From a phage, in sequence record PZ154897.1: 64,000 nt of DNA, one strand, 5' to 3'. Both the position numbers and the translations under genes were made by a program. Positions 1,416 to 54,056 of the stretch are shown here, piece after piece; within the stretch, counting starts at the first letter, position 1; each line of letters opens with the position of its first letter. The notes beneath the pieces are model-generated. The model saw only the letters and a list, made by a program, of their open reading frames with translations, did no database searches and was not told the origin of the DNA.

Positions 1416-1438
1416 AAGGACTCCCGAAGGAGTCCTTA
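1416..1438 (-). terminator. rho-independent terminator, GGACUCC-UUCG-GGAGUCC hairpin followed by U-tract
   Basis: stem-loop then UUUUUAUUUU on minus-strand RNA just downstream of ORF 1441..1659; identical hairpin recurs at 54034-54056. Confidence 0.7.
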
Positions 1439-4884: not shown

Positions 4885-4922
4885 GAGCTATAATATCACA
4901 ACTCTACCGTAAAGTAAACTAT
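4885..4922 (-). promoter_or_regulatory. T4-type early promoter (GTTTAC, 18 nt, TATTAT)
   Basis: revcomp of 4915-4920 is GTTTAC; -10 flanked by 7-bp inverted repeat GGTAGAG/CTCTACC. Confidence 0.6.
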
Positions 4923-7679: not shown

Positions 7680-8176
7680 AAAGTTTTAATAACCTCTACA
7701 ATATCGTCTTGAGAAAGACCGTTAATTAAAATATGATGTTCAGCTGGAGATTTAGAAATTTTAAAGCATGCCTCAACATCTTCTGCCATATCTGATGCAC
7801 TACGATTTGGATTACTAATTCCAAGACGATGTTTTCCCGTTAAAGGATTAACGATGATATAGCATTTACAGCTGTTAATATGAACATTAGGTTGAGTCTG
7901 ATTAATGAACACATCACAATCATATTTCGCAAGCTGATTTTCTAAAAAGACTTTCATCTCCTCAACTGCATCAGGAAGCATATCACGGGCTTGCTCAAGA
8001 CGACGATTTCGATATTCTTTGATGGTCGTTTTCCGCTTAACTTGCTTAGCTAAATCTTTCTTAAGATCGGTGATATATCCAACTCGACGATTTCCTTTAA
8101 ATACAGAAATCCCATCTGTAGTATCACCGTATGCTTCAACGACCATTTCAGTAGTAATAAGCTGCAAATCCATCAT
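7670..8176 (-). CDS. alc: Alc-like protein (168 aa), positional call
   Basis: size and position between rnlA and the spanin pair as in T4; no motif-level confirmation. Confidence 0.45.
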   Translation of the reverse strand: MMDLQLITTEMVVEAYGDTTDGISVFKGNRRVGYITDLKKDLAKQVKRKTTIKEYRNRRLEQARDMLPDAVEEMKVFLENQLAKYDCDVFINQTQPNVHINSCKCYIIVNPLTGKHRLGISNPNRSASDMAEDVEACFKISKSPAEHHILINGLSQDDIVEVIKTLCN

Positions 8177-8199
8177 AAAGTCCTCATGTTATGTCAGTA

Positions 8200-8236
8200 A
8201 GTCTACTATAACACAACACGAGGGACTTGTAAACAG
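8200..8236 (-). promoter_or_regulatory. T4-type early promoter (GTTTAC -35)
   Basis: revcomp of 8229-8234 is GTTTAC, about 18 nt to TATAGT. Confidence 0.55.
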
Positions 8237-17011: not shown

Positions 17012-17046
17012 GTAATAGTATCACACTACTACCCTGTTGTAAACTA
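17012..17046 (-). promoter_or_regulatory. T4-type early promoter (GTTTAC, 18 nt, gtgtgaTACTAT)
   Basis: revcomp of 17039-17044 is GTTTAC; conserved downstream TACCCTATCAACTA. Confidence 0.6.
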
Positions 17047-19332: not shown

Positions 19333-19986
19333 TCAATACTTACAAGATTTCACAGTTTCAATGAAAACACTTTTAGCTTTCTGTGAATCAATATTTAAAA
19401 TTTTTCTATAAGCTTTTAACTTTATAGAATAATTATTCCAGACTAAATTATCAGTCTGTTCATCATGTTTATCGATTATATTTAAAAACGAATCAAGCAA
19501 GATAAACGTCTCAAACGAAATTATATTCGATTGAAGTAGTTTAAAAATATAACTTGATTGAACTTTTGGATTATACTCAAAGATTTCTTTAAAAGCAGAA
19601 ACTTCAACTTTTTTACTAAAATAATAAATGTTGCGAATATCTTCTTCAAACTTAAATTTAATTTGCTTTAAGCGTCCGATATATTCACGATAAAACACAA
19701 GTGCATCAGCGTCAGAGATGTCACCAATCCAAGCATCTTGGTTAGCAACAAGATTGCTTATAAAGATTAAGGCAAGTTCCTTTAATTTATATTTTTCTGA
19801 TAGCTTCTGGAAAAAATACTTATCCCTTCGCTTTTGATAAGCGGCATCAGACACCCGCATGCACCAATTATACTTAATTACATCATACTTTCCATTCATA
19901 TGTTGTTTTATCATTAAGTATAATTTATAAACTGATTTACCATCAATGTATCTTTCACCACCAGCAGGCATGCGGAGTTTAATCAT
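19333..19986 (-). CDS. 59: helicase loader gp59 (217 aa)
   Basis: begins MIKLRMPAGGERYIDGKSVYKLYLMIKQHMNGKYD; matches T4 gp59. Confidence 0.95.
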   Translation of the reverse strand: MIKLRMPAGGERYIDGKSVYKLYLMIKQHMNGKYDVIKYNWCMRVSDAAYQKRRDKYFFQKLSEKYKLKELALIFISNLVANQDAWIGDISDADALVFYREYIGRLKQIKFKFEEDIRNIYYFSKKVEVSAFKEIFEYNPKVQSSYIFKLLQSNIISFETFILLDSFLNIIDKHDEQTDNLVWNNYSIKLKAYRKILNIDSQKAKSVFIETVKSCKY

Positions 19987-33803: not shown

Positions 33804-34439
33804 TCACAGTTCAGATGCTACAGTAATTACAGCTTCAATGTTTTCTGCCGAGCGTTTAATGTCAAGATACACATTACCGTTTTTAGCGATTTTACATGAC
33901 ATTCCGATATCAGTAAATTTCTGAATATGATGTTCCATCATTTTGTATCCAAAAATTCGCATATTTCCATTGTTGTTAATTTCAAAATTACGAATTCCGT
34001 GAGTGCGTTTTTCTAAAATAGCAAGATAGTTACTACGATAAGTTTCAACCTTTTTAAGAACAAATCCATTTTCATCTAAAAGTTTTAACATGAAGTCTTT
34101 ATCTTCTTCCATATCAGAAGTAATCTCGCGAGCTTTACGAGTTGCTCGTTTTTTCAGCAGTTCAGGAGCGTTTTCCTGCGCGTATAAAGTTGCCGCATTT
34201 GAAATAATATCCTGAGCTTCACCTGTAATGATTAATCCATCACCAGATTTCTCTACCAGGCCTTTTTTAATCAATACCCCAATATTACTATTAACTACTG
34301 CATTACCTAAATCTGGATGCACCTCACGAACTTCTGCAGCTGTAATGAAATCTTTCTTAGCAATGGTAATTAAAATCGCAGCAGTTTTTTCATTCAGAAC
34401 ATCGTTAGAAGCTTTGATGATGTAAGTTACTTTAGACAT
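33804..34439 (-). CDS. motA: middle-transcription activator MotA (211 aa)
   Basis: MSKVTYIIKASNDVLNEKTAAILITIAKKDFITAAEV...; matches T4 MotA. Confidence 0.95.
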   Translation of the reverse strand: MSKVTYIIKASNDVLNEKTAAILITIAKKDFITAAEVREVHPDLGNAVVNSNIGVLIKKGLVEKSGDGLIITGEAQDIISNAATLYAQENAPELLKKRATRKAREITSDMEEDKDFMLKLLDENGFVLKKVETYRSNYLAILEKRTHGIRNFEINNNGNMRIFGYKMMEHHIQKFTDIGMSCKIAKNGNVYLDIKRSAENIEAVITVASEL

Positions 34440-34519
34440 TTTCTAATCTCCGTAATTCTGTATCAGTAGTTGATAGTTGTATAGTACCACAGTATGCTTT
34501 GGTCGGCTCTCCCTAAAAT

Positions 34520-34669
34520 TTACTGCATGACTGTGATAACTGTCATAATAACACGTTGAATTCCGAATGCAAGAAGACCTCCTGCTACGGCTTGAACAAC
34601 ACCTAAACCCGCCAGTAAAATACTACCGGATACTAATGCAGCGCTTGTAATACCTATGAATGGACTCAT
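34520..34669 (-). CDS. small hydrophobic membrane protein (49 aa)
   Basis: ATG overlaps gene 52 stop (ATGA); hydrophobic throughout. Confidence 0.4.
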   Translation of the reverse strand: MSPFIGITSAALVSGSILLAGLGVVQAVAGGLLAFGIQRVIMTVITVMQ

Positions 34670-37539: not shown

Positions 37540-37564
37540 TTTCTGTTCCTCCGTAGTTGATAGG

Positions 37565-37600
37565 GTAATAATACCACAGAGGAACAGTCTTGTAAACAAC
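37565..37600 (-). promoter_or_regulatory. T4-type early promoter (GTTTAC, 18 nt, TGGTATTAT)
   Basis: revcomp of 37592-37597 is GTTTAC. Confidence 0.6.
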
Positions 37601-42349: not shown

Positions 42350-42386
42350 ATTAATTATACCACATCCTTGTGGTAAAGTAAACTAT
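42350..42386 (-). promoter_or_regulatory. T4-type early promoter
   Basis: revcomp of 42379-42384 is GTTTAC; -10 GGTATAAT. Confidence 0.6.
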
Positions 42387-44203
42387 TGGCTCATCCATTC
42401 TTTACGAAGGTCAGCATTATCTCCCATGAGCATTTCAAAAAGCTCTTTCCAGTTCTCAGGAAGTTTAACAACATCATAAACTGGGTTTTGAATCATCTCA
42501 CGATATTCAGATTTTTCCAAAGAGCCAAGTCCCTTAATATAACGGATGCTATGTTTAGGTAGAGCATCTTTGGCACTCTCATATTCAGCGACTGTATAAA
42601 ACCATTCTTGTTTTTTACCGACCTGAGCGATGATTACAGGAGTTTTGACAAAGCGAATTCTTCCTTGTTCAAACAGTTCTGGCCAATTACTAAAAAATCC
42701 GAGCAGAGAAGGATAAATGCTTCCTAGACCATCATGGTCAGCATCGGTCATAATTGCAATATTATGATAATTCAAGTTTTCGGCTTTTTCACCAAGAACT
42801 AATCCAGTGATTGCGCAAATATCAAACAGTTCTTTGTTTTTAAGCATATCAGCATATGACATACCCCAACTGTTGAGAACTTTACCACGTAATGGATAAC
42901 CACCATGAAGTTCTTTATCACGAACATCAATAAGATATCCAATAGCAGAATCACCCTCAGTCAAGAAAAGAGTAGTATCAGCATCTTTACCACAAAGATT
43001 CGCTTTAATATGTTTATGAACCTTAGCTTTAGAAGCCTTTTTAGCTGCTTTAGTTTCTGCTGCTTTTTCTGCCGCCAATTTACGAGCAAGGGCAGCTTCA
43101 ATGATTGGCATTAAAATTGCTTCATTATTTAAAATAGCACGTGAAATCTTTTTAGCATCAAGCTGAATATGACTACGGATTTCACCAAATGGAGAAGTAA
43201 GTCGTTCTTTAGTTTGAGAATCAAATCGCATGTTTTTCATATCACGGACAAACATAACGATAGTCAAACATTCTTTGACACGTGCTTTAGTTACATCAAT
43301 TTTGAATTTACGTTTGATTTGTGGAATAAGGTCTTCACAAATATCATCCATAACGCAGTCAATGTGATGGCCACCATTCTTAGTATGAATGTTATTGACG
43401 TATGTTAATTGACGAAAACCATCCGGTGAACGACCAACAGCAATAGAACAATTTTCTTGTTCTTGAACGATAGCATGTTCATCATACTGTCGTGCATATT
43501 TCTTAAAATTACCCTGAACCTTTTTACCATTAAAGGTAAATTGAATATCAGGATAAACTACTGCAAGTGTCTGGAGACGATCCAGTGTAATGTCAAGATA
43601 AACTTGAGATAGCTCATTAGTTTCAAATGACATAAAATCAGGAATGAAAGTAACGCGAGTTCCTTTCCATTTTCCAGGAATAGTTTCCCACGATTTATTT
43701 TCCATGCCATTTGAACAACGAACTACAATATTATTTTGACCATCGCCGGTTTCACCGACAAACATCACAGAAAAAATATTAGTTAAACTAGAACCAACAC
43801 CATTCATACCACCAGTGACGCGTTCTTTATCATCACCGAAGTTACCACCTGCTTTTGGAATAGTCCATGCAGCAACTGGACCAGGAATTTCTTCACCGGT
43901 AGGTGTTTTAACCATCGCCTGTGGAATACCGCGACCGTTATCTTCAACTGTTACTTGATTGTTTTTAATAGTAACATTAATTTTATTTGCGAATTTAAAC
44001 TTAGTACGAATACCTTCATCTACTGAGTTATCGATAATTTCATCAATAAGCTTAACAAGACCAGGTACATACTGAACACTTTCCCATTTACCAAACAGAA
44101 AGCGCTCATGCATTTCATTAGCTGAAGAGCCAATGTACATGCCGCTACGCTTTTTGATATGTTCAATATCGCTCAGAATTTTAATTTCATTCTTAATCAT
44201 CAC
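42383..44203 (-). CDS. 39: DNA topoisomerase II large subunit gp39, unsplit (606 aa)
   Basis: GHKL ATPase plus Toprim in one continuous ORF. Confidence 0.95.
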   Translation of the reverse strand: MMIKNEIKILSDIEHIKKRSGMYIGSSANEMHERFLFGKWESVQYVPGLVKLIDEIIDNSVDEGIRTKFKFANKINVTIKNNQVTVEDNGRGIPQAMVKTPTGEEIPGPVAAWTIPKAGGNFGDDKERVTGGMNGVGSSLTNIFSVMFVGETGDGQNNIVVRCSNGMENKSWETIPGKWKGTRVTFIPDFMSFETNELSQVYLDITLDRLQTLAVVYPDIQFTFNGKKVQGNFKKYARQYDEHAIVQEQENCSIAVGRSPDGFRQLTYVNNIHTKNGGHHIDCVMDDICEDLIPQIKRKFKIDVTKARVKECLTIVMFVRDMKNMRFDSQTKERLTSPFGEIRSHIQLDAKKISRAILNNEAILMPIIEAALARKLAAEKAAETKAAKKASKAKVHKHIKANLCGKDADTTLFLTEGDSAIGYLIDVRDKELHGGYPLRGKVLNSWGMSYADMLKNKELFDICAITGLVLGEKAENLNYHNIAIMTDADHDGLGSIYPSLLGFFSNWPELFEQGRIRFVKTPVIIAQVGKKQEWFYTVAEYESAKDALPKHSIRYIKGLGSLEKSEYREMIQNPVYDVVKLPENWKELFEMLMGDNADLRKEWMSQ

Positions 44204-44711: not shown

Positions 44712-45137
44712 TTATTCCTTAAAGTGAGCTTTCAACATCTGATACAAGGACCATGCTTGTTCATTATTTTCAATAGTAACTTTCATTACCGGGAATTCTG
44801 TGAAATCTTCTATTTGTTCTTGCTCTTTCTCTTCCTGCTCTTGCTCTTCAGCTGCCTGGTATGGATTTTCAACTTCATCAAAGAATTCAGCTTCGCTCGC
44901 TGAAAGCCAGATAAAATCTTCATCCAAAATATCTTTACCAGAAGATAACGCCAATTTTCCACTAGATGTCACAAGTTTAGTAGGACGACCAAGATAGTCA
45001 ATATCTGTAACTCTAAAAGGTTCCATACCTAAACGTCGTGCATAAATTCCGTTTTCAGTATGATATTTAATAAATTTTTCTTGAGCTTGTTTATTTTTAA
45101 ATTGATACCATTTATTAACTTCAAATTTAATAGCCAT
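44712..45137 (-). CDS. hypothetical protein (141 aa), goF-like by size and position
   Basis: same length as T4 goF; acidic [11 protein letters not shown] tract. Confidence 0.35.
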
Positions 45138-45352
45138 TAATAAATTTCCTTCCAGTAAGTTGTACCGTCTTCAGTGATTTCACGAAATACGCCATAAATT
45201 GGTTGTTTATCACCGACTTTCTCATACACATAAACAGAAGTCAAGTGAGTAAACTTGCTAGTATGTTCCTTTTGAACTACTACCAAATTTGGATCAAATA
45301 ATACATCTTCAAATTCATCATTAGTGCAATTCTGAACAATTTTACGTTTCAT
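45137..45352 (-). CDS. hypothetical protein (71 aa), cef-like by size and position
   Basis: 71 aa. Confidence 0.35.
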
Positions 45353-45523
45353 TACAATTTCCTCATTAATTGAACATTGGAGCGATGCGTTTCAGAAGAG
45401 TATCAGCACCTTTAACGAATTATCCATTTTATTCTCCAAGTTGTTTTCTGTATCAGTAGTTGATATTGATATAGTACCATAATCAACTACTGATGTATAT
45501 AGTTTTATGAAAAATTTTAAACT

Positions 45524-46021
45524 TTATGCACAGCGAGCTTTGCTATAGTGTTTAATCCAACTTTCAGGAATGGCTTTGTATGTTCCTAAAAATACCGCAT
45601 TGTACAACTTAACGCCATCTTCTACCCACTGATCGGTAATGTATGCGCACATAGCACGAGTACGGTGTTTTTGAACAACCCCTTCCTCATCTTCAGTAAA
45701 TTCGAATTCATAAGGAGCAATGAACTTAATAGCTTGACCGAGTTTCCACTTAAAGTCTACACCTACATGCGAAGTATCAATCGTTTCAATTCCTTTAGCG
45801 GGAACAGCTTTCAAAAACGCAGATTCAAGAAATTTCGCACGAACATAGCCAAACTGAGGTTTAGACTTTCCATCTTTAGGAATGATACGCACTTTTACTT
45901 CAGAATCTTCATCTTTAACACCATGTTTAAGCTGAATGCTTACAATTTCGACCAATTTTCCTGCTGCTTTAGAACGGGATTTATCAGATACACGAGCAAT
46001 TTCACCAATATTAATAATCAT
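45524..46021 (-). CDS. hypothetical protein (165 aa), motB-like by position
   Basis: C-terminal motif TDQWVEDGVKL shared with next ORF. Confidence 0.4.
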   Translation of the reverse strand: MIINIGEIARVSDKSRSKAAGKLVEIVSIQLKHGVKDEDSEVKVRIIPKDGKSKPQFGYVRAKFLESAFLKAVPAKGIETIDTSHVGVDFKWKLGQAIKFIAPYEFEFTEDEEGVVQKHRTRAMCAYITDQWVEDGVKLYNAVFLGTYKAIPESWIKHYSKARCA

Positions 46022-46061
46022 AGTTATCTCTCACTTGTTAAAAAGATTTTATACTCCACAG

Positions 46062-46097
46062 GACCATTATACTCTGGCCCCAAGAGTTTGTAAACTA
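46062..46097 (-). promoter_or_regulatory. T4-type early promoter
   Basis: revcomp of 46090-46095 is GTTTAC; -10 TATAAT. Confidence 0.55.
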
Positions 46098-46640
46098 TTA
46101 ATTCAAAATAGCTACCACTGCACTACGAGGTACTACACTAAAATCACCTGCATGAACAACATTCAGAAGTTCAACGCCATCTTCAATCCACTGGTCTGTT
46201 ACCCAACCACAGACCGAAACAAATGGGGTCTTAATAGCTACAGCACGAGTTAGAAGGTCAGTAGGGTCTTGTTCTTCAACTTCTTGGAACAGGATGAACC
46301 CTTCTTCATAAACCAGGATTTTCTCTATTTTGTTATTGTCTAAACGACGACCGTGGACAATATAAGATTTAGTAAACCATTTACTTTTTTCAAAGTCTTC
46401 AACAATAAATTCGCCTTCGCCAAAAACAACAGTCAGAGTTTTATGGCCGGAAATCAAGGCATTAGTTTTAATTTTAGGTTCAACCAGTTTGTAAGTTTTG
46501 CCGATTTCAATAGCGGTAGTCATAGTAGGTTCCTTAATTTCCAGCGGTTTAACAGGGCATACATAAGTGCTTACAACATCAAAATCAATCAGTTTAGCTA
46601 CCGGATTTGGAGTGTATTCAGGATTATAATTAAATTTCAT
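46098..46640 (-). CDS. hypothetical protein (180 aa), paralog of 45524..46021
   Basis: shares TDQWIEDGVEL motif. Confidence 0.45.
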   Translation of the reverse strand: MKFNYNPEYTPNPVAKLIDFDVVSTYVCPVKPLEIKEPTMTTAIEIGKTYKLVEPKIKTNALISGHKTLTVVFGEGEFIVEDFEKSKWFTKSYIVHGRRLDNNKIEKILVYEEGFILFQEVEEQDPTDLLTRAVAIKTPFVSVCGWVTDQWIEDGVELLNVVHAGDFSVVPRSAVVAILN

Positions 46641-46642
46641 AA

Positions 46643-47182
46643 TTATCTCATTTCAATAAAATCTACGAGTTCAGCATGCGATTTGCGGAACATTACTTGG
46701 CGTCCGCCAATGATAACTTGGTCATCTGGCACTTCGTATACAGCAAGATAAAATCCCTTAGAAGATAATTCTTCACGCTCTTCTCGTGTGAACCATCTCA
46801 TCATATCATATTCGCTAGCGAAAGCAAAATGATAAAGACCTATAAACCATCCTGGAATATGATATTCTACTCCAACATAATCTTTCTTGAACTTAGTATT
46901 AATTACGATATTAGCATTTTTAACTAATAATTTGTCTTCATGTGGAAGAGGAATTCTTTTATTATCATTACTATGATGCATAAAATTAGGTCTGTCATAA
47001 CCTACGTGTAATAACCACTCTTCGCTCCATGAATCTATTATACTCCTGTATGGCGTTATTTGACCACAAAGATTTCGACGTATTGTTATAGCATCTTCAT
47101 TATTAAGAATACTAAAAGATGATTCAACACGATAAATTTTCATTTTATTATCCTCAGTAGCTATGGTGTTATAATACCACAA
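46643..47182 (-). CDS. hypothetical protein (179 aa)
   Basis: ORF in array. Confidence 0.45.
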   Translation of the reverse strand: MWYYNTIATEDNKMKIYRVESSFSILNNEDAITIRRNLCGQITPYRSIIDSWSEEWLLHVGYDRPNFMHHSNDNKRIPLPHEDKLLVKNANIVINTKFKKDYVGVEYHIPGWFIGLYHFAFASEYDMMRWFTREEREELSSKGFYLAVYEVPDDQVIIGGRQVMFRKSHAELVDFIEMR

Positions 47183-47202
47183 CTAACCGAGGAAGTAAAC
47201 AA
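47165..47202 (-). promoter_or_regulatory. T4-type early promoter
   Basis: revcomp of 47195-47200 is GTTTAC; -10 GGTATTAT. Confidence 0.55.
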
Positions 47203-54020: not shown

Positions 54021-54033
54021 ATAAAATGAAAAA

Positions 54034-54056
54034 AGGACTCCCGAAGGAGTCCTTGA
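54034..54056 (-). terminator. rho-independent terminator after soc (identical hairpin to 1416-1438)
   Basis: GGACUCC-UUCG-GGAGUCC then UUUUUUCAUUUU on minus-strand RNA. Confidence 0.7.

Follow-up and report, generated by a model that had tools for sequence, protein, structure and literature searches.

Covarying arms around a putative early promoter of cef in a T4-type phage suggest a PeSL-type cassette

Upstream of the cef gene of a T4-type phage, a perfect 13-bp inverted repeat brackets the -10 element of a putative early promoter, and the orthologous promoters of other genera carry, in the same place, repeats of different sequence whose arms still pair. We put at roughly 0.6 the probability that this element is a cassette of the PeSL (promoter-early stem-loop) type, a known design of T4-like phages with a strong early promoter inside a stem-loop. 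On this reading selection maintains the complementarity of the two arms, and not a sequence for some protein to recognise. Among PeSLs it falls in the subclass whose stem-loop overlaps the -10 box. The perfect 13-bp repeat is most likely not a repressor binding site. What replaces the repressor-operator reading is a picture in which T-even early promoters are routinely built inside hairpins with co-evolving arms. This picture bears on how densely packed early transcription units stay separate, on what to make of software-called "terminators" in T4-like genomes, and on why promoter cassettes are hotspots of gene gain and loss. The cef hairpin is a clean test case for it; single-arm and compensatory mutants are easy to design.

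The window, by which we mean the whole stretch of 64,000 nucleotides that was analysed (sequence record PZ154897.1), comes from a T4-type phage, a Tequatrovirus. A query of 301 bases around the repeat matches 508 phage records, nearly all of them Tequatrovirus at 95-99.7% identity, with T4, T2, T6, RB32, and PST among them. The genes around the repeat are all on the minus strand: topoisomerase gp39 (42383-44203), goF (44712-45137), cef (45137-45352), and motB (45524-46021, with its stop codon at 45524-45526). The motA gene (33804-34439) lies with gp52, 11 kb from the repeat locus.

An earlier note on this DNA, made from the letters, had described a perfect 13-bp inverted repeat, and the repeat is exact: ATCAGTAGTTGAT at 45452-45464 and ATCAACTACTGAT at 45482-45494 (plus strand), 17 nt apart. 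The 17-nt core reads TATGGTACTATATCAAT on the minus strand and contains TGGTACTATA, also as that note had it. The repeat continues inwards, so to speak, to arms of 20 nt with 85% complementarity and a 3-nt loop. Each 13-bp arm is in itself a small dyad, ATCA-N5-TGAT, and the centres of the two half-sites are 30 bp apart. It is one of two in the window that are perfect over 13 bp or more and have a loop no longer than 40 nt; first-order Markov simulations average 0.09 such repeats, and 9% of them produce one or more. The only other one is found at 19866-19878 / 19913-19925 (AATTATACTTAAT / ATTAAGTATAATT, 34-nt loop); it is A/T-rich and lies within a 217-aa coding ORF on the minus strand.

Folded as RNA, 91 nt of the repeat region reach -24.9 kcal/mol (z = -5.75; none of 200 shuffles equals it), and the DNA fold of the region has -11.5 kcal/mol (z = -5.5). 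In the predicted RNA hairpin, a stem of 13 bp is followed by a 2x2 internal loop, 5 further bp, and a triloop, at about -20 kcal/mol. Measured over -30 to +16 of the promoter it has -20.1 kcal/mol, which places it in the 0.1% tail of random 46-mers. The 91-nt fold adds an outer 8-bp helix that joins the UP region to UGGAGAAU. No Rfam family matches within 45000-46100.

The repeat was also said to bracket a promoter -10, and it does. On the minus strand we find, in order, TATACA, 17 nt, and TGG-TACTAT, which is the arrangement of a sigma-70-type early promoter with a TGn extension. The extended -10, TGG TACTAT (45471-45479), lies apically in the hairpin, whose triloop CUA is the centre of the -10, and TACTAT matches the TAYWAT of the T-even consensus at 6/6 positions. 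The -35-like hexamer TATACA (45494-45499), across a 17-nt spacer, matches 5/6 of the T4/PST early consensus TTTACW and makes a weaker -35 than the GTTTAC that most early promoters have. The upstream arm (ATCAGTAGTTGAT on the minus strand, 45482-45494) fills the spacer from -30 to -18. The downstream arm (ATCAACTACTGAT on the minus strand, 45452-45464) would be the first 13 nt of the transcript, +1 to +13; it begins after six bases beyond the -10, and the predicted +1, placed by its spacing from the -10, is 7 nt after the -10. Further upstream, an A/T-rich (88%) UP-like region (45502-45525) overlaps the stop codon of motB. At its 3' end, the cassette has a Shine-Dalgarno sequence and a start codon, GGAG-N7-ATG (45424-45437), and 14 nt (45438-45451) separate the 13-bp arm from the GGAG.

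That this site is an active promoter is suggested by its identity with the T4 motA promoter, a proven early promoter. The -10 and the leader are the same at both sites, from -16 to +19 the two are nearly identical, and the depositor's annotation of the T4 motA record Z48569 gives GTTTACA as -35 and TACTAT as minus_10_signal. In the window, the paralogous copy of the -10 and leader, GGTACTATACAACTATCAACTACTGATACAGAA at 34456-34488 (minus strand), belongs to the motA promoter and has no complementary spacer arm. A module made of -10, leader, Shine-Dalgarno, and ATG, with the downstream arm in its leader, is thus common to the cef and motA promoters and to the e.8 promoter of RB69, where the spacer arm is absent as well. 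The RB69 copy (AY303349.1, 73179-73284, just before e.8) has the same -10/leader/SD/ATGGATAAT module next to an unrelated spacer, with two canonical terminators upstream. Judging by the sequences, this copy is consistent with promoter cassettes moving between loci.

Existing annotation has little to say about the cef site. A generic sigma-70 promoter and terminator scan called neither a promoter nor a terminator there, and the GenBank records of T4, PST, T6, and M89919 have no regulatory feature at this position. Two other GenBank records label the hairpin "terminator", and these labels are software calls. Our search of the literature, outside of which lay the 1992 comC-alpha paper and the T4 genome review, found no T4 start-site or 3'-end maps.

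Directly behind the cassette, T2, RB27, and many other relatives have an intact 89-aa gene of unknown function (phrog_3720). In T4 and in the window, 209 bp of this gene have been lost between AAAA microhomologies, an indel that adjoins the cef promoter cassette. What follows the Shine-Dalgarno sequence in the window is an 11-codon ORF, MDNSLKVLILF* (45392-45427, minus strand), which we considered as a conserved peptide and rejected; it is the frame-shifted scar of the 89-aa gene.

The cef promoter is not alone in having a hairpin. The earlier note had claimed that inverted repeats around the -10 recur at early promoters of this genome, and they do. Both of the examples it gave are there: GGTAGAG/CTCTACC at 4902-4908/4881-4887, and AGGGTA/TACCCT around the -10 at 17020. 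Locating early promoters by the pattern GTTTAC-N18-TAnnAT, we find that 10 of 19 in the window have a fold of -12 kcal/mol or lower over -30 to +16, compared to 3.1% of random 46-mers (Mann-Whitney p = 2.5e-5). Among the window's early promoters, just one has a stronger hairpin than cef, which ranks second. Of 51 promoters in a non-redundant set drawn from 12 genomes, 45% reach -12 kcal/mol against a background of 4.8%.

The arms are specific to each promoter. A spacer pairs with its own leader at -9.8 kcal/mol and with swapped partners at -5.5 kcal/mol (permutation p < 5e-5), and the longest perfect run of pairs is 5.45 with the own partner versus 4.03 with a swapped one. Since own pairing beats swapped pairing, the complementarity is not a by-product of the promoter consensus. 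Within one genome the sequence of the arm varies from promoter to promoter: ATCAGTAGTTGAT, GGTAGAG, AGGGTA, GGTACAGG, ACAAGACTA, and CTGTTCCTC.

The hairpins come in two registers. In one, the centre falls between -12 and -11, and the arms span about -27 to -15 and about -8 to +4. The axis of the cef hairpin is near -9, compared to -11.5 for this common register. In the other, the 3' arm extends as far as the Shine-Dalgarno sequence, as where 37573-37587 pairs with 37543-37557 (CTGTTCCTC/GAGGAACAG), from spacer to Shine-Dalgarno. The minus-strand promoters at 37543-37587, 47151-47194, 1340-1373, and 8170-8235 have a spacer that pairs with the Shine-Dalgarno region of their own gene, an example of the pairing being CTGTTCCTCTGTGGT / ACTACGGAGGAACAG. 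By the predicted folds, such pairing would mask the ribosome site in read-through RNA and leave it free in promoter-proximal RNA.

How does evolution treat the arms? Among close relatives, it leaves them alone. The repeat has the same sequence in T4, T2, T6, and PST. Of 498 records, 433 match the 57 nt of promoter and hairpin at 100% identity, while the neighbouring 57 nt do so in just 15 of 493. The arms are invariant in every Tequatrovirus sequence that was aligned, and all the single differences that we inspected in Tequatrovirus fall outside the arms. This invariance is a sign of constraint and not of covariation, because the whole promoter is equally invariant.

To see changes in the arms one has to look at more divergent sequences. 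At the same position of the cef promoter, other genera have GGTCTAT/ATAGACC, GGTGTAGGAG/CTCCTACACC, AGGGCTAT/ATAGCCCT, and GGTAGGAGC/GCTCCTACC. In a set of eight orthologous cef promoters from other genera, which were unselected, and three window promoters, which were picked for showing the repeat, 90% of the cells are paired over the 10 pairs scored, and 7 of the 10 pairs change on both sides. Not one shuffle out of 500 does as well, and registers slid out of place pair at 33-50%. Pairing is kept while both sides change, which is to be expected of base pairing and speaks against an operator shared for a protein.

A class of elements with these properties has been described in T4-type phages. 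PeSLs consist of an AT-rich region, a sigma-70-like early promoter, a stem-loop, and a Shine-Dalgarno sequence with ATG, and their stem-loops are commonest in the interval that separates -35 from -10 or overlapping the -10 box (Arbiol et al. 2010, PMC2839356; Comeau et al. 2014, PMC4122927). They were first described in RB49 and phi1 (PMC2839356), and later in PST and T4 with the consensus TTTACW-N17-TAYWAT (PMC4122927). The cef cassette has each of these parts. It is intergenic, begins at the upstream stop codon, and fills the motB-cef gap. Its promoter fits the T-even consensus (-35 5/6, N17, -10 6/6), its stem-loop is stable and overlaps the promoter (-20.1 kcal/mol; z = -5.75), its AT-rich region at 45502-45525 is 88% A+T, and it ends in GGAG-N7-ATG. 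It also has the indels and dispersed copies of PeSLs, in the form of the 209-bp indel and of the modules at motA and RB69 e.8. There are differences too. The stem at cef is A/T-rich, unusually long and perfect (13 bp), and has no U-tract, and it is unlike the published motifs GGGG..CCCC (RB49) and AGNA..TCNT (PST). According to the PeSL authors, one G/C-rich PeSL stem-loop lowered downstream lacZ as strongly as rrnB T1; this terminator or attenuator activity belongs to a different stem-loop, and at cef it is a possibility.

Under the PeSL reading, the hairpin would work in RNA and in only one kind of transcript. Transcription from the cef promoter would start at about the first base of the downstream arm. 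The promoter's own mRNA would then lack the upstream arm and stay unfolded, because its start lies at the downstream arm. RNA that reads through from motB holds both arms, and the hairpin would form solely there, where we infer that it serves as an insulating mark at the border of the upstream transcript with the cef unit. Possible routes are attenuation of read-through, formation of a 3' end that is protected, or obstruction of decay or of ribosomes. As a side effect, the conserved cassettes would be preferred points of recombination. In the published work on PeSLs, crossovers within them are documented, and a recombination protein that binds the stem-loops is offered as a speculation.

The route is unlikely to be classical intrinsic termination, because no U-tract follows the hairpin and only 4 of the 13 arm pairs are G:C. 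The element resembles a Rho-independent terminator in being a stable RNA hairpin just after a stop codon, but those have a G/C-rich stem and a U-rich tail, and cef has neither. As a candidate, then, the intrinsic terminator was rejected: the stem is G/C-poor, the tail is ACAGAAAACA, and the generic terminator scan misses it.

There are several other ways to explain the repeat. The earlier note had suggested an operator, at which a dimeric phage or host regulator would bind the two 13-bp arms and repress or time the cef promoter. Palindromic repressor operators do overlap promoters, as those of the lac, lambda, and LexA type, and the resemblance is real: a perfect symmetry flanks the -10 and the +1, the classic position of a repressor, each arm is itself a small dyad, and the arms are invariant in more than 430 genomes. 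It may be added that how T4 early promoters are shut off has yet to be explained (Hinton 2010). But a half-site recognised by a protein is expected to keep its sequence across sites and relatives, and the cef arms are not shared by other promoters and co-vary between genera, so that the symmetry is kept via covariation and not via sequence as in those operators. The half-site centres, 30 bp apart, are also too far from each other for the usual spacing of a dimer (centres about 10-21 bp). A search for the palindrome elsewhere in the genome, which the earlier note had proposed, finds the full palindrome once per genome, and the downstream arm turns up as a family-typical early leader that has no partner at motA or RB69 e.8. 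Nor is any candidate regulator known; MotB, encoded next door to the cef promoter, is reported to bind DNA non-specifically, which counts against an operator as well. We find this explanation very improbable. Another explanation is translational masking as in T4 e, soc, 49, and I-TevI, in which structure in the read-through RNA hides the ribosome-binding site of the next gene, whose translation is thereby confined to transcripts that begin at its own promoter. The leader hairpins of those genes form only in upstream-initiated RNA, in a design whose promoter sits within the 5' arm (Uzan and Miller 2010, PMC3014915). The cef element shares with them a promoter in or beside the 5' arm and the contrast between upstream-initiated RNA, which would fold, and promoter-proximal RNA, which would not. 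At least four window promoters pair their spacer with a Shine-Dalgarno sequence, and the outer 8-bp helix of the 91-nt fold brings in UGGAGAAU at cef itself. However, the T4 e-type hairpins sequester the SD or AUG and belong to late or middle promoters, whereas cef has an early sigma-70 promoter and its 13-bp arms stop 14 nt before the GGAG, which lies outside of them although within the weak outer helix. The predicted accessibility of the SD changes little from own-promoter to read-through RNA, at 0.01 versus 0.05 in the window and 0.29 versus 0.12 in T2, and the ORF behind the SD in the window phage is a mere deletion scar. Masking at cef is improbable to us, if a shade less so than an operator.

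Two more explanations put the repeat to work in DNA, or to no work at all. In DNA, a cruciform or single-strand hairpin could modulate the opening of the promoter, or could be a hotspot of recombination or template switching for the shuffling of PeSLs. The register common to most of the promoter hairpins is centred at -12/-11, where melting nucleates; the DNA hairpin is stable (the z-score of -5.5 given above); indels and module exchange take place at the cef cassette; and crossovers are documented inside PeSLs. There are precedents: Horwitz and Loeb reportedly described a cruciform-regulated promoter in 1988, and the virion RNA polymerase of phage N4 uses hairpin promoters. These resemble cef in having an inverted repeat that is centred on a promoter element and could extrude, but they need supercoiling-driven extrusion or a dedicated polymerase, and nothing at cef indicates either one. 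Besides, a cruciform would split the -10 and destroy the -35/-10 geometry, consensus dinucleotides (T-15:A-8, A/G-16:T-7) that nucleate the stem can account for the fixed register, and the sister hairpins that take in the Shine-Dalgarno sequence have meaning only in RNA. No computational test separates the RNA level from the DNA level. The sense fold is stronger than the antisense fold in 18 of 24 strong hairpins, a bias that random coding-strand 46-mers have as well (71%), and inside stems G:T mismatches number 8 and A:C mismatches 5 (p = 0.58). With a canonical upstream terminator at just 5 of 51 promoters, there are too few to ask whether the hairpin substitutes for a terminator. Action in DNA seems to us unlikely, on the whole. 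A stronger version of it, in which complementarity between the spacer and the first transcribed bases is a register-locked design rule of T-even early promoters that acts on the promoter itself, we hold to be very doubtful. In it, the axis would lie between -12 and -11, with the cef element as the most extreme example, and the means could be a hairpin or cruciform in the DNA, or pairing of the nascent 5' RNA back to the non-template spacer; if true, the rule would contribute to the rapid shut-off of T4 early promoters or to their unusual strength. Finally, the repeat could be non-adaptive, if one templated mutation (a quasi-palindrome or strand switch) copied the complement of the leader into the spacer, where it persists through conservation of the promoter. 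A perfect 13-bp block beside an imperfect inner stem looks like such an event, the arms are no more invariant in Tequatrovirus than the entire promoter, so there is no site-specific sign of selection on pairing, and the copies at motA and e.8 work without the arm. Against this, the orthologous cef promoters of several other genera independently carry hairpins in the same place with different sequences, and hairpins are about ten-fold enriched at early promoters. A by-product is in our opinion quite unlikely, though not as unlikely as masking.

A few more observations concern the surroundings of early promoters in this phage. The upstream stop codon often abuts or overlaps the -35 (..TAGTTTAC), for instance at 4895, 17020, 42359, 46071, and 58986. 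Because of this, the promoter is the whole intergenic region, and that may explain why an RNA structure must overlap the promoter. Elsewhere, two identical copies of a 22-nt terminator hairpin, AAGGACTCCTTCGGGAGTCCTT, which has UUCG as its loop and a T-run after it, are found at 54033-54054 and at 1416-1437 (minus strand), both just upstream of an early promoter. RB69 has a nearly identical one, AAGGAATCCTTCGGGATTCCTT. It looks like a reused terminator module.

The motA promoter of the window phage has an oddity of its own. It is missing 48 bp that are present in T4 and GRNsp7, with the junction at 34503/34504 (plus strand, within 34481-34520). Absent with this piece are the 3' arm of the upstream terminator along with its T-run, the UP region, and the -35 GTTTAC, and what the promoter retains is just the TGn-extended -10. 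Natural variation could account for the loss, as could mutation in the laboratory or a mistake in assembly at the hairpin. When the 136 nt of this region are used as a query, which gives 533 matching records, each full-length match among those listed spans 182-186 nt, and these full-length records all carry the extra ~48 bp.
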